DNA from: Escherichia coli
GTDB taxonomy: Bacteria > Pseudomonadota > Gammaproteobacteria > Enterobacterales > Enterobacteriaceae
Length of the DNA stretch: 64,000 nt
Assembly (NCBI RefSeq): GCF_003334315.1
Contig: NZ_QOWR01000012.1
Reading direction: 5' to 3' (one strand)
Positions 35,831 to 50,029 of this stretch are shown one piece after another (positions within the stretch are counted from its first letter, which is position 1; each line of letters begins with the position of its first letter). The notes under the pieces are model-generated. The model was not told where the DNA came from. It saw nothing but the letters and a program-made list of their open reading frames with translations, and did not search any database. The position numbers and the translations under genes were made by a program.

Positions 35831-36478
<648 letters not shown>

Positions 36479-36632: not shown

Positions 36633-37520
36633 TTAATTAATGTCTAATTCTTTTATTTTGCTCTCTTTGCGTACTGTCAGCGTAGACCCCATTGAAGCGG
36701 CGATAATCGCGCCGAGCGCCAGTAGCTGTATGGGTGTCAGTGTTTCTCCGAGGAAAATCATCCCGGAAACGGCAGCCAGCGCCGGTTCCATGCTCATCAG
36801 CGTACCAAATGTCCGTGTTGGCAAACGGGTGAGGGCAATCATTTCCAGCGAATAAGGCAGAGCGGTCGAGAGAATAGCGACAGCCAGACCCAATGGAATA
36901 ACCGACCAGTGCCAGAGTGCTTCACCAGCCTGAAGCGCTCCAATTGGCACGAAAATTAACGCTGCAATCAACGAACCAATTGCCACCGTCGCAGGGCCAT
37001 GTTCCGCTCCTGCGCGTTGCCCACTTAAAATGTAAATAGCCCAACAAGCCCCGGCCCCCAGTGCCAGCGCACAGCCGGTTAAATCGACATGGGAAACGTC
37101 TTGCCCCAGCGGTAGCAGGAACCACAGACCAAGAACCGCCAGCACAACCCAGACGAAATCTACCGGGCGACGAGAAGAGAACAGCGCCACCGCCAGTGGT
37201 CCGGTGAACTCCAGCGCCACCGCAATACCCAGCGGTACTGTCTGAATAGAAAGATAAAAAAGATAATTCATCCCACCCAGCGAAACGCCGTAAAACAACA
37301 GCGGTAACCGTTGCTCTTTGGCAAAGCGCAGTCGCCATGGCTTAAAGAACGCGATGAGGATCAGCGTTCCTAATGCCAGACGCAGCGCAGTGACACCCGG
37401 TGCGCCCACCAGAGGAAAAAGTGACTTAGCTAACGAGGCTCCACCCTGAATAGACGCCATGGCAACGAGCAATATGACTATTGGTAACCAGACCGGCATT
37501 TTACGTAATGAACCAGGCAT
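36633..37520 (-). CDS. rhtA: Threonine/homoserine exporter RhtA (DMT family)
   Basis: Start MPGSLRKMPVWLPIV (295 aa); 10 TM segments. Confidence 0.9.
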   Translation of the reverse strand: MPGSLRKMPVWLPIVILLVAMASIQGGASLAKSLFPLVGAPGVTALRLALGTLILIAFFKPWRLRFAKEQRLPLLFYGVSLGGMNYLFYLSIQTVPLGIAVALEFTGPLAVALFSSRRPVDFVWVVLAVLGLWFLLPLGQDVSHVDLTGCALALGAGACWAIYILSGQRAGAEHGPATVAIGSLIAALIFVPIGALQAGEALWHWSVIPLGLAVAILSTALPYSLEMIALTRLPTRTFGTLMSMEPALAAVSGMIFLGETLTPIQLLALGAIIAASMGSTLTVRKESKIKELDIN

Positions 37521-37872
37521 CCTTTCTCCCACAAATATCTAGACTTAAGTAAAGCGTGGAGTGTACTGGATATACCCAATGCTGGTTGAGCATTTGTTGA
37601 AAAAATTTTCCCCCGTTTTGACTAAAATGCGCCAGGATTGATGGAATCATTAGTCTGGTGATTAGGAATAATCTGGATGAATGACAGGGAAAACATGCGT
37701 AATACTTACGCAGTTCTCTGAAAAAGTGATTTAAATTTAGATGGATAGCGGTGTATGGAAACGTTCTGTTACATGAAATGGCCCGTTAGACATCACAAAT
37801 CGCGAAGAGTTTCCCATTAATTTTTGATATATTTAAAACTTAGGACTTATTTGAATCACATTTGAGGTGGTT

Positions 37873-38388
37873 ATGAAAAAAATTGCATGTCTTTCAGCAC
37901 TGGCCGCAGTTCTGGCTTTCACCGCAGGTACTTCCGTAGCTGCGACTTCTACTGTAACTGGCGGTTACGCACAGAGCGACGCTCAGGGCCAAATGAACAA
38001 AATGGGCGGTTTCAACCTGAAATACCGCTATGAAGAAGACAACAGCCCGCTGGGTGTGATCGGTTCTTTCACTTACACCGAGAAAAGCCGTACTGCAAGC
38101 TCTGGTGACTACAACAAAAACCAGTACTACGGCATCACTGCTGGTCCGGCTTACCGCATTAACGACTGGGCAAGCATCTACGGTGTAGTGGGTGTGGGTT
38201 ATGGTAAATTCCAGACCACTGAATACCCGACCTACAAACACGACACCAGCGACTACGGTTTCTCCTACGGTGCGGGTCTGCAGTTCAACCCGATGGAAAA
38301 CGTTGCTCTGGACTTCTCTTACGAGCAGAGCCGTATTCGTAGCGTTGACGTAGGCACCTGGATTGCCGGTGTTGGTTACCGCTTCTAA
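37873..38388 (+). CDS. ompX: Outer-membrane protein OmpX
   Basis: MKKIACLSALAAVLAFTAGTSVA signal peptide; C-terminal GYRF; 171 aa. Confidence 0.95.
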   Translation: MKKIACLSALAAVLAFTAGTSVAATSTVTGGYAQSDAQGQMNKMGGFNLKYRYEEDNSPLGVIGSFTYTEKSRTASSGDYNKNQYYGITAGPAYRINDWASIYGVVGVGYGKFQTTEYPTYKHDTSDYGFSYGAGLQFNPMENVALDFSYEQSRIRSVDVGTWIAGVGYRF

Positions 38389-38403
38389 TCACTTTGGTGA
38401 TAT

Positions 38404-38436
38404 AAAAAATCCGCCTCTCGGGGCGGATTTTTGTTT
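38404..38436. terminator. Bidirectional intrinsic terminator between ompX and opgE
   Basis: aaaaaATCCGCCtctcgGGGCGGATttttgttttt; GC stem flanked by A and T runs. Confidence 0.8.
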
Positions 38437-40020
38437 TTAAGGTTTCGGGTCGAAAATATCGGTTCCGAGATGGTTGTAATCCACCTTCTGTAACTGGAAG
38501 TTGGTGATGTATATCGGCCCGGCTTTCTTCTCAGATATAAACGGGTATTTGATGTTAATTTCCTTCGCTTTAATCCCCGTCCACTGGGAGAAAAAGCCTA
38601 AGAAGTCATTGGCTGAGCGGCGGGCTTTAATCACACGATGCGCTTTATCGTCGCTGGAAATGACCATAAAAGGCACCTGGAAATTTTGCTGATATTTATC
38701 ATCATGGGCAAGGTATTGCACGTCTTTACCGCGCTCTTTAAAGGCCAGACCGTGGTCAGAAAAGTAAACCAGCGAGAAGCTGCTGCCGCTGTTGCGTAAC
38801 TGATCGTACAGCTTGCGCAGTAAATCGTCCGTTTGCGTCATGGTATAGAGATAGCACGACGTTTCTTTCGATTGCACAAAGGTTTCGTATTTTCCTTGTG
38901 TCCTGTCGCAGGCCTGCGGATGTGAGCCCATCAGATGTAGAACAATCAGCTGCGGTTGCGAGTGCTCTTGCGCCAGCACTTGAGCGGTCATATCCAGTAA
39001 CGCTTCGTCTTTGGTGTTTTTATCTGCTTCAAAATTACCTTCTTTCAGGAAGTACACTTCATCTGCTCGTTTGGCGATGCTGGCGATAGCGGTATCGTAT
39101 TCGCCGATTTGACCCTGGTTGGAAAACCACCAGGTCTGGAAGCCCGCGCGATTTGCCAGGGTGACAAAGTTATCCTGAAACTGTGGTTTGCCATCGACAA
39201 CGCGATTGAGCGTTAAGCCAAGCGATTTCTGCGTGGAGCCACTGGCGGCAATGTAGTCAGCAAATATCAAACCGTTAACGCTGCTGGCAAACGGGGTATT
39301 GTCCCAGTGACCGCCAAAGGCACCGAGGGCATCGCGACGCGCGCTTTCACCGATCACCACCACATAGGTCTGATACTTCGGCTTAACGGCAGTGACCGTC
39401 CAGGTATCTTTCATTCCGGAAAGTTTTGCCATCCGTTCTTGCTCTTCAATCACCTCGTTATTATTGACGATGACATCCTTAGCAAAACGAAATACCGGAT
39501 AGCCAGTATCTTTCAGTTTAAATACGCCACCCCAGGCCAGGTTTTGCACGGGAGCAACAAAAAATGTCGCCACACTGAATACCAGACACAGGCTGTCGAA
39601 GGTATTCCAGCGCGCTTTTTCATTCTCTTTTTTTCGCCTGATTGCTATTACGCCGAGCGCAAAAATAAATAAGCCGACCAGGTAGCTGTACCACGGAAAA
39701 ATCGTCAGGATTTCGGTCGACTCTTCCATATTGGTGGAGTGCAATGCCAGCAATGTATTGAAATTAGGCGCGCCGTAGGCCTGAGCAAAAGGGAAATAAC
39801 AAGCCGCCACCAGCGAACTGACACCGACCAGAACTTTTTGTACGCGAGGCAATGTTCGCCATAGCAAAAGCAAAATAGCCGTAAACGCAGCGGTGTAGAG
39901 CAAACTGAAGGGGTAACCTAAGCCGAGGTTAATTAATAGCGACTGTAAAAAGTAGAACGCAGTCCACGGGCTAAATACCCGGCTACGGGTAACAAGCGAT
40001 TCTTTGAGGGTTAAATTCAT
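38437..40020 (-). CDS. opgE: Phosphoethanolamine transferase OpgE (YbiP)
   Basis: 527 aa; N-terminal TM region and sulfatase-like domain. Confidence 0.9.
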   Translation of the reverse strand: MNLTLKESLVTRSRVFSPWTAFYFLQSLLINLGLGYPFSLLYTAAFTAILLLLWRTLPRVQKVLVGVSSLVAACYFPFAQAYGAPNFNTLLALHSTNMEESTEILTIFPWYSYLVGLFIFALGVIAIRRKKENEKARWNTFDSLCLVFSVATFFVAPVQNLAWGGVFKLKDTGYPVFRFAKDVIVNNNEVIEEQERMAKLSGMKDTWTVTAVKPKYQTYVVVIGESARRDALGAFGGHWDNTPFASSVNGLIFADYIAASGSTQKSLGLTLNRVVDGKPQFQDNFVTLANRAGFQTWWFSNQGQIGEYDTAIASIAKRADEVYFLKEGNFEADKNTKDEALLDMTAQVLAQEHSQPQLIVLHLMGSHPQACDRTQGKYETFVQSKETSCYLYTMTQTDDLLRKLYDQLRNSGSSFSLVYFSDHGLAFKERGKDVQYLAHDDKYQQNFQVPFMVISSDDKAHRVIKARRSANDFLGFFSQWTGIKAKEINIKYPFISEKKAGPIYITNFQLQKVDYNHLGTDIFDPKP

Positions 40021-40291
40021 ATGCCACTATCGTAACAAACGCCATGTGCTTACCCTGGCGTCAAGGGTCAATACCTGCAAGAGTGCGTGAAGAGTGGAAA
40101 GGGGTCCGCATCCGCGAGCCGCAATATACGCAGGGCTGCAAGAAGATAGAGCGAGCCGCCGTTCAGGTCAACTACTGACGAACAAATCTTTTGCGAAGGG
40201 GATTGCAAATCCGACAAAAAGTGGGGTTTTTCAGACCAAAACGCGTTATGCCTGCATGAAAGCAGGAGTGAAGCGGCGTACCGCGACGCCG

Positions 40292-40420
40292 CTATTTATC
40301 GGAAGGTTTATCTTGCTGCGGTTTGTTGTTGACCATATCGCACAACATAGAGAGCAGCATTAACCGTACTTTAAAGGGAGAATGACTAAACACGCGCATA
40401 CACCTCTTGAACTCATTCAT
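40292..40420 (-). CDS. mntS: Small protein MntS (42 aa), within the rybA sRNA locus
   Basis: Minus-strand translation MNEFKRCMRVFSHSPFKVRLMLLSMLCDMVNNKPQQDKPSDK with SD ggagg upstream; not in the supplied ORF track (below its size cutoff). Confidence 0.85.
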   Translation of the reverse strand: MNEFKRCMRVFSHSPFKVRLMLLSMLCDMVNNKPQQDKPSDK

Positions 40421-40477
40421 AAGACCTCCTGACTTGCTAATCCCGTCGATCCTTGAGGGATGATTGCATTACATACA

Positions 40478-40515
40478 GATATAGCACAGGCTATATTATA
40501 TAGCTATTGCTAAAA
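40478..40515. promoter_or_regulatory. Tandem MntR-type operators upstream of mntS
   Basis: ATAGCacagGCTAT followed by ATAGCtattGCTA; matches the MntR inverted-repeat core. Confidence 0.6.
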
Positions 40516-40605
40516 CGTTAATTTTTTGTACCTTCGCAACTCTGGTTTACAATGTGCGCACGAAATGAGAACGCTATGTATGCGTCACCATAATGAGGAA
40601 GCACA

Positions 40606-41073
40606 ATGAGTCGTCGCGCAGGTACGCCAACAGCAAAAAAAGTGACGCAGTTAGTGAACGTGGAAGAGCACGTTGAAGGGTTCCGCCAGGTCAGAGAGGC
40701 GCATCGGCGCGAGCTTATTGATGATTACGTTGAGCTGATTTCTGACTTGATCAGGGAAGTGGGGGAAGCTCGTCAGGTGGACATGGCTGCTCGTCTGGGA
40801 GTTTCGCAACCGACGGTGGCTAAAATGCTTAAGCGGCTGGCAACCATGGGGCTGATTGAAATGATCCCCTGGCGTGGCGTGTTTTTAACGGCAGAAGGAG
40901 AGAAGCTGGCGCAGGAAAGCCGCGAGCGACATCAGATAGTCGAAAATTTCTTGTTGGTGTTGGGCGTCAGTCCGGAAATCGCCCGTCGCGACGCGGAAGG
41001 CATGGAGCACCATGTTAGTGAAGAGACGCTCGACGCTTTTCGTTTGTTTACCCAGAAACACGGTGCCAAATGA
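40606..41073 (+). CDS. mntR: Manganese-responsive regulator MntR (DtxR family)
   Basis: 155-aa ORF with DtxR-type HTH. Confidence 0.93.
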
Positions 41074-42188
41074 GTCTGCCTTTTTTACGCACGCTGCAAG
41101 GCGATCGTTTTTTTCAGTTATTAATTCTTGTTGGTATCGGATTAAGCTTTTTCGTGCCCTTTGCACCGAAATCCTGGCCTGCTGCTATCGACTGGCACAC
41201 CATCATCACCTTAAGCGGCCTGATGCTGCTGACCAAAGGTGTGGAGTTAAGCGGTTATTTTGATGTGCTGGGGCGCAAAATGGTGCGCCGCTTTGCTACG
41301 GAGCGTCGGCTGGCGATGTTTATGGTGCTGGCGGCGGCGCTGCTTTCTACCTTTCTGACCAACGATGTCGCGCTGTTTATTGTTGTTCCGCTGACTATCA
41401 CGCTAAAAAGACTGTGTGAGATCCCGGTTAATCGGCTGATTATTTTTGAGGCGCTGGCAGTCAACGCTGGTTCGCTACTGACGCCAATTGGCAACCCGCA
41501 AAATATTCTTATCTGGGGACGTTCTGGTCTTTCGTTTGCCGGATTTATTGCCCAAATGGCACCGCTGGCTGGCGCAATGATGCTGACGCTCCTGCTCCTG
41601 TGCTGGTGTTGTTTCCCTGGAAAGGCGCTGCAATACCATACGGGGGTGCAAACACCGGAGTGGAAACCGCGGCTGGTGTGGAGTTGTCTGGGGCTGTATA
41701 TCGTCTTTCTGACGGCGCTGGAGTTCAAACAAGAGCTGTGGGGACTGGTGATTGTGGCGGCAGGCTTTGCGCTGCTGGCACGTCGCGTGGTGCTCAGTGT
41801 GGACTGGACGCTGCTGCTGGTGTTTATGGCGATGTTTATCGACGTCCATTTACTGACCCAGCTTCCAGCGTTGCAAGGCGTGTTGGGTAACGTGAGTCAT
41901 CTATCTGAACCCGGGTTATGGTTAACGGCAATCGGTTTATCGCAGGTGATCAGTAACGTGCCGAGTACCATATTGTTGCTGAACTATGTGCCGCCGTCTT
42001 TATTACTGGTATGGGCGGTAAACGTAGGTGGCTTTGGGTTATTACCCGGATCGCTGGCAAATTTGATTGCGCTACGTATGGCGAACGATCGCCGCATCTG
42101 GTGGCGTTTCCATCTCTATTCAATACCGATGCTGTTGTGGGCGGCGTTGGTGGGATATGTTTTGTTAGTTATACTCCCGGCCAACTAG
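41070..42188 (+). CDS. ybiR: Inner-membrane transporter YbiR (ArsB/NhaD-like)
   Basis: 372-aa polytopic ORF; 4-nt overlap with mntR. Confidence 0.88.
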
Positions 42189-42201
42189 GGTCTGGCAAAT
42201 A

Positions 42202-42235
42202 AAAAAGGCGGATTATGAGTCCGCCTTTTGCTTTA
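42202..42235. terminator. Bidirectional intrinsic terminator between ybiR and ldtB
   Basis: aaaaaAGGCGGAttatgagTCCGCCTtttgcttt. Confidence 0.8.
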
Positions 42236-42246
42236 AGTTTTGAAGA

Positions 42247-43167
42247 TTAATTCAGACGAACCGGCATCCCGGAGCGGTTTTTAATCGCTTCATCAAGAAC
42301 AACCTGGTCAACATCTGGCTGACCGGTCACTGTCTGCACGCTCTTCGTCAGGGTAATTGGCACAATTTCCTGACCTTCAAACTGGGCTTCGGTGGTAGAC
42401 AGCGGGTTATGGACTTCAATATAACGGCTGCCGTCTGGCTCGGTGGTCGCTTTTACCGGCTCATCAATAAACTGTACGCGGGTACCGACCGGTACTTTCT
42501 CGAACAGGAATTTGATGTCTTCGTTACGCAGACGCACACAACCATGACTTACACGCAGGCCGATACCGAAGTTGGCGTTGGTGCCATGGATAGCATACAG
42601 GCGACCGATATAGAGTGCATACAGCCCCATCGGGTTATCCGGACCTGCCGGAACGACAGCCGGAAGCGGTTCGCCCGCAGCGCGGTACTCTGCGTGCATT
42701 TTGGCGGTCGGCGTCCAGGTCGGGCCTGCTTTTTTACGCTCAACTTTGGTGGTCCAGTTGATAGGCGTATCTTTGCCTAACTGACCAATGCCGATCGGCA
42801 GCACGATAACGGTGTTGGTCCCTTTCGGATAGTAATAAAGACGCATCTCAGCACTGTTAATGACGATGCCTTCATGAACGGTATCCGGCAGGATCAGCTG
42901 CTGCGGAATGTTCAGTACAGTACCGCCTTTCGGCAGGAAGGTATCCACACCCGGGTTCGCTTCCATCATATTGGAAAGCCCCATCTGGTACTCGGCGGCA
43001 AAATACTCCAGCGGCTGAGTGTTACCTTCAGGAATGGTGATCACCTGATTCTGACCAACCAGGCGACTCCCGTCGGTTGGCAGAGGATAAGTTACCGCAG
43101 AGGCGGTACTGCAAAAGCCGACAACAGCGAAGGCCGCTGCGAATAATGTTTTCAATTTCATATTCAT
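42247..43167 (-). CDS. ldtB: L,D-transpeptidase LdtB (YbiS)
   Basis: 306 aa; signal peptide; YkuD domain with catalytic SHGCVR. Confidence 0.92.
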
Positions 43168-43385
43168 GTTAAGCGAGATTTTGTGCCTGGCAGGCCATTG
43201 GGTTGAGAATATTAGAGTATTGGAAGCGCATTATAAGTTCATTCCAGCTCACAGTGAAATCAGATGTGTACGAAATCACATTTTTTGCCTTTGGCTTGAG
43301 TGTAGACCTTAAGCGAGGAGCAGGATCTTCTTTCAGACTTATGGCATAATGCGCGGTTTGTCATATCTCTTTTCAGGATACGCCT

Positions 43386-44978
43386 GTGTTAGTTTCCAGT
43401 AACGTCACCATGCAGTTCGGCAGTAAGCCGTTGTTTGAAAACATTTCCGTCAAATTTGGCGGCGGCAACCGTTACGGCCTGATTGGCGCGAACGGTAGTG
43501 GTAAATCCACCTTTATGAAGATCCTCGGCGGCGACCTTGAGCCGACGCTGGGTAACGTTTCCCTCGATCCCAACGAGCGCATTGGTAAACTGCGTCAGGA
43601 TCAGTTTGCCTTTGAAGAGTTCACTGTGCTGGATACGGTGATCATGGGGCATAAAGAGTTGTGGGAAGTGAAGCAGGAGCGCGACCGCATCTATGCTTTG
43701 CCGGAAATGAGTGAAGAAGACGGCTATAAAGTGGCCGATCTGGAAGTTAAATACGGCGAAATGGACGGTTACTCTGCGGAAGCTCGCGCCGGTGAACTGT
43801 TGCTTGGCGTGGGAATTCCAGTGGAACAGCACTACGGCCCGATGAGTGAAGTTGCTCCTGGCTGGAAGCTGCGTGTGCTTCTGGCGCAGGCGCTGTTTGC
43901 TGATCCGGATATTCTCCTGCTCGACGAACCGACCAACAACCTCGACATCGACACCATTCGCTGGCTGGAACAGGTGCTGAACGAGCGTGACAGCACCATG
44001 ATCATCATCTCGCACGACCGTCACTTCCTTAACATGGTCTGTACCCACATGGCGGATCTGGATTACGGCGAGCTGCGCGTTTATCCGGGTAACTACGATG
44101 AGTACATGACGGCGGCGACCCAGGCGCGTGAACGTCTGCTGGCCGATAACGCCAAGAAGAAAGCGCAGATTGCTGAGTTGCAATCTTTCGTTAGCCGCTT
44201 TAGCGCCAACGCCTCGAAATCTCGCCAGGCAACTTCGCGCGCGCGCCAGATTGATAAAATCAAACTGGAAGAGGTGAAAGCCTCCAGCCGTCAGAACCCG
44301 TTCATCCGTTTTGAACAGGATAAGAAACTGTTCCGTAACGCGCTGGAAGTGGAAGGTCTGACCAAAGGGTTTGATAACGGTCCGCTGTTTAAAAATCTCA
44401 ACCTGCTGCTGGAAGTGGGTGAAAAACTGGCGGTACTGGGTACCAACGGCGTCGGTAAATCAACGCTGCTGAAAACGCTGGTGGGCGATCTGCAACCGGA
44501 CAGCGGCACCGTAAAATGGTCTGAGAACGCGCGCATTGGTTACTATGCTCAGGACCACGAATATGAGTTTGAAAATGATCTGACCGTGTTCGAATGGATG
44601 AGCCAGTGGAAGCAGGAAGGCGATGACGAGCAGGCGGTACGCAGTATTCTCGGTCGTTTGCTGTTCAGCCAGGACGACATCAAAAAGCCAGCTAAAGTGC
44701 TTTCCGGTGGGGAAAAAGGGCGGATGCTGTTTGGTAAGTTAATGATGCAGAAGCCGAACATTCTGATCATGGACGAACCGACCAACCACCTGGATATGGA
44801 ATCCATTGAGTCGCTGAACATGGCACTGGAACTGTATCAGGGCACGCTGATCTTTGTTTCACACGACCGTGAGTTCGTAAGCTCCCTGGCGACCCGCATT
44901 CTGGAAATCACCCCGGAACGCGTGATCGACTTTAGCGGTAATTACGAAGATTACCTGCGTAGTAAAGGGATCGAGTAA
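43386..44978 (+). CDS. ybiT: ABC-F family ATPase YbiT
   Basis: GTG start; two Walker A motifs ([18 protein letters not shown]); 530 aa; hairpin tcaccccgatactgtcggggtga follows the stop. Confidence 0.92.
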
Positions 44979-47596: not shown

Positions 47597-50029
47597 TTAC
47601 AGCATATGTTCAGTACGGGCGATGATATCGTCCTGAGCGTCTGGAGAGAGCGCGGTGAAGAAGGCGGAATAGCCCGCGACGCGCACTACCAGATCGCGAT
47701 ACTGATCGGGATGTTTTTTCGCCTCCAGCAGCGTCTCGCGGGAAACGATGTTGTACTGAATATGCCAGCCTTTATGCACTTCAAAGAAGGTACGCAGCAG
47801 GATCATCAGTTTCTGCTTGTCAGATTCGTTCTCCAGCGTTGCCGGATTCAGTTTCTGGTTGAGCAACACGCCGCCGAGAATCGCTGCCGTAGGCAGTTTA
47901 CCCACTGAGCCAATGACCGCAGTAGGGCCAAGATGGTCAGTACCGGAAGCCGGACTTGCGCCTTCTGCCAGCGGGGTGTGGGCTTTACGCCCGTCCGGTG
48001 TTGCCATAGTCTGCGCGCCAAACGGTACGTTAGCGGAGATAGACGACGTACCCGCGTAATAGTTGCCGCCAACCGGACCACGACCATAGCGTGGGTTATG
48101 GTACTGTTTCAGTTCGTCGATATAGGTCTGATAAGCGCGAGCCAGCAGCGTATCGACGGTATCATCGTCGTTGCCGTACTTCGGCGCACCGTTAATCAGC
48201 CGCTGACGCAGTTGCTCATGAGTCAGGCCATCGAAGTCATCCGCCAGTGCGGCAGCCAGCTGTTGCTGACCAATCGCACCCTGTTCAAACACCAGTTTCT
48301 TCACTGCCGCCAGGCTGTTGCCGAGGTTGGCAATGCCAACCTGCAGGCCAGAAACCCAGTCATATTTCGCGCCGCCTTGCTTGATACTTTTCGCTCGCTC
48401 AATACAGTCATCCACCAGCGCCGAGCAGAGAATATCGTGTACGTTCTCTTCCAGCATGGTGTCGACGACATATTCGATTTCGATTGATTTACGCGTGTAA
48501 TAACGGATTTGCGTATCCCACGCGTCCATTACTTCATCGAAATTGTTAAAGTTGCCTGCCGACAACGCTTTTTCTTGTGGCAGGAACACTTTGCCGCTGG
48601 TGGCATCACGCCCGCCTTCCAGCGCCGCCAGCATCACGCGGGCGAAGTTGATAAAGCTCATGCCGGTACAGCGATAGCCCCATTTGCCACCGACGGCGGT
48701 TTCGATACAACCAATCGCTGCGTAGTCGTAAGCGTCCTGCGGTTCAATACCGAGTTTAATAAATTCCGGGATCACGATTTCGTCGTTGTTGAACGCCGGC
48801 ATCCCGAAGCCGCAACGGATCACCTGTACGCAGGCGTCGAGGAAATCATTACTCATTCCTGCATGGTAACGCACGCTGAGGTTAGGCTGAGTGGAACGCA
48901 GGCGACCGCAGGATTCGAGGATCGCGTAAGAGAGGGGATTCACTGCATCCATTGGTTGACCATCAACCAGATTTTGTCCGCCAATGGTAACGTTCTGATA
49001 CAGCGGACTTCCCGCAGAGGCTTTTGAGTGTGAGCCGGAGCGGATCTTGTTCACTTCCAGCAGTTTCAGCCAGCAGCTATGCAGCATCTCGATGGCGTGT
49101 TCGCGATCCAGCGTCTGGTTGAGTTCAACGTCGCGGCGATAGTACGGGTAGAGATACTGGTCCATACGACCAAACGATACCGAGTGACCGTTAGATTCGA
49201 TCTGCAAAATCAATTGGATGAAGTAACACAGTTGCAGCGCCTGCCAGAAAGTCTGCGGCGGCTGGTGGGCGATAAGATCGCAGTTTTCTGCCATCGTCAG
49301 CAGTTCATCGCGACGGCTTTCGCGAGTTTCGGTAGCAGCCATTTCACGCGCCAGGGCAGCGAAACGTTCAATGTGTTCACTGACTGCCACCAGCACGATA
49401 TCAATCGCTTTCAGGAATTGTTCGCCATGTAAATCTTCCAGCACCGTCAGATTGATGCGCGAGCGACGTTCCGCTACTTTCTCACGCAGACCATCAAGAC
49501 CTTTTTCCAGCAGCAGCGGGAAATTCACCGCCAGGTGCGCATCGCCGGAGGTCATATTGCCTTCCGCTTTAATGATTCCGGTCGCCAGCAGACCTTTTTG
49601 CTCATCGGTAAACATGCCGTAGCAGCGATCCTGTACGGTCTGACCGCGCCACCACGGGCACACTTCATGCAGAACGCGTTTGTTCTCTTCGCTCACCGCA
49701 AAGCCAGCACCGGGACGATCTGCCAGATCATCAATCTCTTTTTCGATCCACGAGACAGTATATTCCGGGAAGATCGGCGCGGCGCGAACTTCGCTTGCCT
49801 GGTTGCCAATGATCAACTCATCGTGTTTGATCCAGATGGTGCGATTCGCCAGGTGATGCGCCAGTGCCAGCGCGCGACGTACCGGGATCGGCTTATCGAG
49901 ATGTTGTTGATACATCTCGGTATAGTGCTGCGCGCGCTCGGTACAGACTGGCGGTTTCACAATATGCACCAGCGCATTTTTGTGCGCTTTAATGCGGTCG
50001 CTGAGCGTGTCCAGTTTCAGTGTGGTCAT
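47597..50029 (-). CDS. ybiW: Glycyl-radical enzyme (pyruvate formate-lyase-like) YbiW
   Basis: 810 aa; C-terminal glycyl-radical signature RVAGYSAFF. Confidence 0.92.

Follow-up and report, generated by a model that had tools for sequence, protein, structure and literature searches.

In Escherichia coli, MntS is a textbook example of a small protein that regulates a transporter. Transcription of mntS is repressed by manganese-loaded MntR, and overproduction of MntS causes manganese toxicity, an effect that does not require Hfq and is lost when a frameshift is introduced at Phe11 or Phe16 (PMC4361602). The abundance of the mntS transcript has been used as a calibrated manganese sensor that reads out Mn-MntR occupancy (PMC11742986). 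The protein binds and inhibits the manganese exporter MntP and self-associates with manganese, a behavior for which a role as an off-switch has been proposed (bioRxiv 10.1101/2023.06.02.543501). According to the same study, MntS appears to be derived from the signal peptide of an MntR-linked SitA. SitA signal peptides of the type found in Rahnella and Sodalis resemble MntS in length (40 to 45 residues), PF motif, and bihelical shape, are also associated with mntR, and can replace MntS, whereas MntS has neither an AXA cleavage motif nor a mature SitA domain and is less hydrophobic (bioRxiv 10.1101/2023.06.02.543501). Whether the short reading frame is translated is answered in the literature: chromosomally tagged MntS was detected under manganese limitation (PMC4361602), and for the Salmonella orthologue a call from Ribo-seq data was confirmed by a western blot (bioRxiv 10.1101/2020.05.26.116038).

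The locus considered here lies in a 64-kb stretch of E. coli DNA (the window), of which an earlier account was made from the letters without database searches (the sequence-only reading). Taken as a whole, the locus is almost certainly the E. coli mntS gene with its own promoter and operators, repressed by Mn-MntR and encoding an MntS that inhibits MntP. Features and their positions are collected in Table 1.

Table 1. Positions in the window of the features of the mntS region and its neighbors
Feature	Position	Strand	Description
mntS reading frame	40292..40420	-	42 codons plus stop
Shine-Dalgarno AGGAGGT	40424..40430	-	Upstream of the mntS ATG
Leader hairpin AUCCCUC, loop AAGGAUC, GA(C)GGGAU	40440..40461	-	Candidate CsrA site; the role is suggested by its architecture
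RybA/mntS transcript 5' end	40487	-	Mapped from the K-12 rybA annotation; leader of 67 nt
mntS -10 hexamer TATAAT	40495..40500	-	Perfect; from sequence, conserved across genera
Proximal MntR-type operator ATAGC-ACAG-GCTAT	40481..40494		Perfect arms; overlaps the transcript start
Distal MntR-type operator ATAGC-TATT-GCTAA	40500..40513		One mismatch; abuts or overlaps the upstream edge of the -10 hexamer
RybA RNA	40148..40487	-	340 nt; K-12 rybA, 852725-853064; equals the mntS mRNA plus a long 3' tail
Post-stop G+C-rich hairpin	40272..40293	-	8 bp, -13.8 kcal/mol; overlaps the stop codon; stem conserved across genera
Promoter-like element TTGACC-17-TATCTT	40143-40171	-	Conserved; between mntS and opgE, overlapping the RybA 3' end (40148)
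Likely mntR -10, TACAAT	40548-40553	+	Within conserved block CATTGTAAACC (40554-40544)
mntR	40606..41073	+	Divergent gene for the Mn-sensing repressor
89-aa ORF	40094..40363	+	GTG start; overlaps mntS

Identity of the gene and relation to K-12

The minus-strand ORF starts with ATG, ends with TAG, and encodes the product MNEFKRCMRVFSHSPFKVRLMLLSMLCDMVNNKPQQDKPSDK; it is mntS (b4705), a known small-protein gene of E. coli. By coordinate mapping, the ORF corresponds to K-12 positions 852869 to 852997 (b4705), within the annotated RNA gene rybA (b4416). The predicted peptide matched the NCBIfam equivalog family NF033226 (small_MntS) over residues 1 to 39 of 42 with a score of 96 bits (E = 6.3e-28), compared to a curated whole-protein cutoff of 36 bits. 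The sequence-only reading had described a 42-codon minus-strand ORF behind a strong Shine-Dalgarno sequence, had recognized its product as MntS of the rybA locus, and had named mntR as the neighbor. These elements were all recovered: the ORF listing and a new translation gave the quoted peptide exactly, AGGAGGT lies 3 nt before the ATG, alignment gave coordinates equal to those of b4705 within b4416, in agreement with the family score, and the product of the neighboring gene scored 269 bits against the MntR equivalog NF008273.

The annotated gene order is opgE, mntS/rybA, mntR, ybiR, and ldtB. Compared to mntS (b4705) and rybA (b4416) of K-12, the protein sequence, the coordinates, the neighbors (opgE downstream and mntR divergent), and the promoter are identical. 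Alignment of window positions 37423 to 43423 with positions 850000 to 856000 of E. coli K-12 MG1655 revealed 2 mismatches in 6,001 bases. No difference falls inside positions 40292 to 40515; both lie in ybiR, one a synonymous change in codon 2 (C>T at 41075) and the other a Met187Leu substitution (A>C at 41628). With these as the sole two differences in 6 kb, the strain is very close to K-12 but is not MG1655 itself. A 651-bp region around mntS was matched in 5,422 of 5,426 complete E. coli genomes, and both the “manganase accumulation protein MntS” and MntR were annotated by RefSeq in all 12 genomes among the matches listed.

Conservation of the reading frame

With MntR as the anchor, 80 loci were collected from Enterobacteriaceae, one per species-level genome; 2 of these came without upstream sequence, leaving 78 assessable loci. 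An MntS-like ORF divergent from mntR was found in 77 of the 78, always with an ATG start and a length of 41 to 44 codons, and the distance from the mntS ATG to mntR was almost fixed at about 185 bp (185 bp in the window). The genera in which the ORF is kept include Escherichia, Citrobacter, Salmonella, Enterobacter, Klebsiella, and Raoultella, as well as Kluyvera, Kosakonia, Leclercia, Lelliottia, Franconibacter, and others. Codon analysis of the first 37 codons in 74 distinct MntS sequences gave a mean pS of 0.53 and a mean pN of 0.12 (pN/pS, 0.22), and variation was found at 34 of 37 third codon positions versus 14 of 37 second positions. The mntS frame contained no stops, while each of the other five frames had them in 46 to 74 of the 74 sequences. 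The consensus of these sequences was MNEfkRC..VF.HSPFkVRLmL..mlcd, with which MntS of the window agrees, including the N-terminal core MNEFKRC..VF.HSPFKVRL and the PF motif.

The window also contains a longer ORF opposite mntS, 89 codons in length, which the sequence-only reading had dismissed as spurious. This ORF is listed by a default ORF search, the minimum of which is 60 aa; the 42-aa mntS product falls below that value, which would explain why mntS was missing from the supplied ORF track. Greater length and its place in the default list are the points in favor of the 89-aa ORF as the real gene, with the 42-codon ORF a chance frame in a noncoding leader, an arrangement that is next to inconceivable given the comparative evidence. 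The 89-aa ORF begins with GTG, and its product had no match among NCBIfam families. Stops or frameshifts break it in another E. coli (locus L003), Escherichia sp. (L004), and E. albertii (L006), that is, even within Escherichia, and in most other genera, and its frame had a pN/pS of 1.15 across the overlap with mntS; by comparison, 77 of the 78 loci have the 42-codon ORF intact. As a true gene, the 89-aa ORF was rejected on the basis of the pN/pS comparison and the stops in relatives, and the judgment that it is spurious was upheld. Variation dominated by third positions, a low pN/pS, stops in the other frames, and the broken antisense ORF together indicate that the small ORF is the selected reading frame and that mntS is under purifying selection.

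The mntS promoter and its MntR-type operators

The TATAAT hexamer precedes the mapped RybA/mntS transcript 5' end by 7 nt, and the CsrA CLIP-seq peak described below stops beside that 5' end, at K-12 position 853065. No convincing -35 element for the mntS promoter was found by inspection or with a consensus promoter scan, and the poor -35 accounts for the scan calling no mntS promoter. When approximately 75 distinct orthologous intergenic regions were compared, positions 40527 to 40468 proved nearly invariant (at least 95% conserved across genera) and the flanks variable.

Three occurrences of TAGC-N4-GCTA were found in the 64-kb window, compared to 0.72 expected, and two of these are at 40482 to 40493 and 40501 to 40512. 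Two such sites within 30 bp occurred in 4 of 3,000 shuffles of the window. The sequence-only reading had placed two adjacent ATAGC-N4-GCTA(T) repeats just upstream of the gene and had taken them to fit Mn-dependent repression by MntR. Both repeats exist, but their placement required refinement: rather than lying simply upstream, the pair straddles the -10 hexamer, with the transcript start inside the proximal repeat. The proposed link to MntR agrees with the published repression and with the presence of the same core motif at other MntR-controlled promoters.

In K-12, the core box ATAGC-N4-GCTAT that mntS has in common with the MntR regulon is present as a single perfect copy at each of mntH and dps and as a perfect and a mismatched copy at mntP, and the flanks are similar, of the form A(C/T)ATAGC ... 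GCTAT(G/A)T. The mntP promoter therefore resembles that of mntS in having one perfect box and one box with a mismatch. Unlike at mntS, however, a distance of 40 bp separates the mntP boxes, which lie far upstream of their gene, and mntP is activated by MntR (PMC8632737). At mntS, the boxes are 19 bp apart from center to center and lie on the -10 and +1 positions, a geometry of repression. From motif identity, position, conservation, and secondary citations, we infer that both palindromes are occupied by MntR; their placement over the -10 and +1 suggests that they act by excluding RNA polymerase.

The distal palindrome could instead be conserved through promoter elements of mntS or mntR, with MntR binding only the proximal site. 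The mismatch in one arm of the distal site (GCTAA) and its location, abutting the mntS -10 and approximately 46 to 59 bp upstream of the presumed mntR start, where promoter function could explain the conservation, are consistent with this alternative. It is nonetheless unlikely, as the arms of the distal box are conserved as strongly as those of the proximal box, mntP likewise bears a pair consisting of a perfect and a one-mismatch box, and a biosensor paper mentions MntR binding sites for its figure of the mntS promoter, with a plural that refers to its three promoters together (PMC9806134).

With MntR occupying both palindromes, the circuit would operate as follows. At high cytoplasmic Mn(II), MntR loaded with manganese would bind the two ATAGC-N4-GCTAT palindromes that flank the -10 and cover the start, and bound MntR would exclude RNA polymerase; repression itself is published, and occlusion is suggested by the geometry. 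When manganese is scarce, the promoter fires, and the 67-nt leader with its strong Shine-Dalgarno sequence allows translation of the 42-residue MntS. The protein then binds MntP and blocks efflux, as published, such that the cell retains manganese, and self-association of MntS in the presence of manganese would provide the off-switch that has been proposed. The mntP gene is present in the K-12 genome and lies outside the 64-kb window.

A third perfect ATAGC-N4-GCTAT box was observed at 36384 to 36397, 51 to 64 nt upstream of the dps start codon. By its title, a 2011 study by Yamamoto reportedly places dps in the MntR regulon, and the box at dps fits this membership. Each of the three perfect or near-perfect box clusters in the window is located at a promoter that has been reported to be an MntR target. 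A further match with one mismatch, ATAGCGTGGGTTAT, was observed at 48086 to 48099 and may be due to chance, with 1.4 such sites expected per window.

On the mntR side, the 5' untranslated region of mntR starts at K-12 position 853136, equivalent to window position 40559, in the corresponding table of Potts 2017. TACAAT lies just upstream of this published start and is most simply the mntR -10, and the conserved block that contains it is probably conserved as that element. The divergent starts at 40487 and approximately 40559 would be about 72 bp apart. The spacing of the distal MntR box from the mntR start raises the possibility of mntR autoregulation.

The only one of the 78 assessable loci without mntS beside mntR was that of Citrobacter sp. 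R56 (L013; NZ_CP069159.1). There, an A/T-rich foreign segment interrupts the proximal box directly behind its first arm (ATAGC), such that the distal box and the -10 are kept and the remainder of the proximal operator is lost. No MntS ORF was found within 2.5 kb upstream of mntR at this locus.

The RybA transcript and its 3' end

The transcript of the locus is cataloged as the small RNA RybA, and signs of RNA structure were few. A scan of positions 39000 to 42000 against Rfam at E ≤ 1 returned no match. The minimum free energy of the 340-nt RybA was no better than that of shuffled sequences (z = 0.00), and folding of the 70-nt leader likewise gave no thermodynamic sign of a structured RNA (z = +1.10 versus shuffles). 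Conserved structure in RybA was limited to a short hairpin in the leader and a hairpin at the stop codon.

The post-stop hairpin was not significantly more stable than shuffled sequences (z = -1.56), its T tract in E. coli is weak, and a terminator scan found nothing at mntS. The tail of the hairpin is T-rich in most genera (TTCATTTTT), compared to TTCACTCC in E. coli. RybA species have been reported as a ladder from 205 to about 400 nt with a common 5' end (PMC4361602), and the shortest species, at 205 nt, would end near position 40283. The hairpin is likely to be the 3' end, or terminator, of this shortest transcript, and the T-rich tail has decayed to TTCACTCC in E. coli, which may explain a read-through ladder up to about 400 nt. 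Past the hairpin, conservation is poor until the TTGACC-17-TATCTT element, which is probably the promoter of opgE.

These observations bear on whether the locus acts mainly, or additionally, as a regulatory RNA that lowers aroF and aroL under peroxide stress, with the ORF secondary. The annotation of a 340-nt noncoding rybA in K-12 speaks for an RNA function, as does the repression of aroF and aroL, independent of Hfq and dependent on TyrR, that is attributed to Gerstle 2012 where that work is cited (PMC4361602, PMC11878033); the authors of PMC4361602 leave room for a role of the RNA in other contexts, and the transcript begins with 20 invariant nt, more than the MntR core requires. A regulatory RNA, as either the main or an additional function, is nevertheless quite improbable, considering the lack of an Rfam match or a favorable fold in the scans described above, the codon-periodic conservation inside the ORF at a pN/pS of 0.22, and the poor conservation of the 3' tail between the post-stop hairpin and the presumed opgE promoter. 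In addition, frameshift alleles lose the manganese phenotype, and the effect is independent of Hfq (PMC4361602). Despite the cataloging of the transcript as a small RNA, the conserved and selected feature is the reading frame.

The leader and possible control by CsrA

Leaders repressed by CsrA, such as those of glgC and cstA, have a two-site layout, in which a hairpin loop presents one GGA and the Shine-Dalgarno sequence contains the other. The mntS leader has a candidate arrangement of this kind. The loop of its hairpin has the form A-N-GGA-N-N, with the loop GGA at 40452..40450 and the Shine-Dalgarno GGA at 40429 to 40427, and the two are separated by 21 to 23 nt in most leaders. The Shine-Dalgarno core AGGAG did not vary among 36 diverse leaders, and across 75 sequences its conservation was at least 95%. 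Across the 36 diverse leaders, 77.7% of cells in the hairpin pair, compared to at most 57% with the partners slid, and changes on both sides were found in 5 of the 7 pairs. When 70 distinct leaders were folded singly, a GGA was placed in a hairpin loop in 58, compared to 173 of 1,400 shuffled sequences. The sole prediction of RNAalifold for the 36 leaders was a trivial 4-bp helix; because the program did not predict the leader hairpin, support for the hairpin is moderate.

A CsrA CLIP-seq peak has been reported on mntS (peak_81; K-12 852943 to 853065, minus strand; logFC, 1.93; padj = 5.8e-12), as given in Supplementary Data 1 of Potts 2017. The maximum of this peak, K-12 position 853004, maps to window position 40427, within the Shine-Dalgarno sequence. 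Among the papers searched, none was found that discusses CsrA together with mntS or rybA or reports a functional assay of CsrA on mntS, and mntS did not appear in the part of the expression data that was covered. In contrast to glgC and cstA, a role of CsrA at mntS is suggested by the CLIP-seq peak and the architecture of the leader. On the basis of this peak and the conserved two-site layout, CsrA might bind the GGA of the leader hairpin and the GGA of the Shine-Dalgarno sequence and repress translation of MntS, adding a second, posttranscriptional layer of control; this reading is tentative and has somewhat less than an even chance of being correct.

A further segment of the leader, transcript positions +12 to +20 (40468 to 40476, minus strand; GTATGTAAT), was invariant in the 36 diverse leaders and belongs to neither the 14-bp core nor the flanks of the MntR box. 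This segment could be part of a CsrA site or of another site. A Fur box was considered for this A/T-rich invariant segment and was rejected, the passages of PMC4676285 on MntS/RybA giving no Fur site at mntS.

Implications for manganese homeostasis

The MntS gene, its MntR-type operators, and the mechanism are already known and characterized, and the locus adds nothing new on mntS as such. It does illustrate that a real 42-codon gene can be masked by a spurious longer antisense ORF, and short conserved ORFs with a strong ribosome binding site deserve rescue for that reason. The CsrA lead is the only part with fresh value, the mildly new point being the GGA hairpin together with the undiscussed CLIP-seq peak. 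If true, control by CsrA would tie manganese retention to a regulator of carbon storage and growth phase, which would be a modest addition to what is known of manganese homeostasis.
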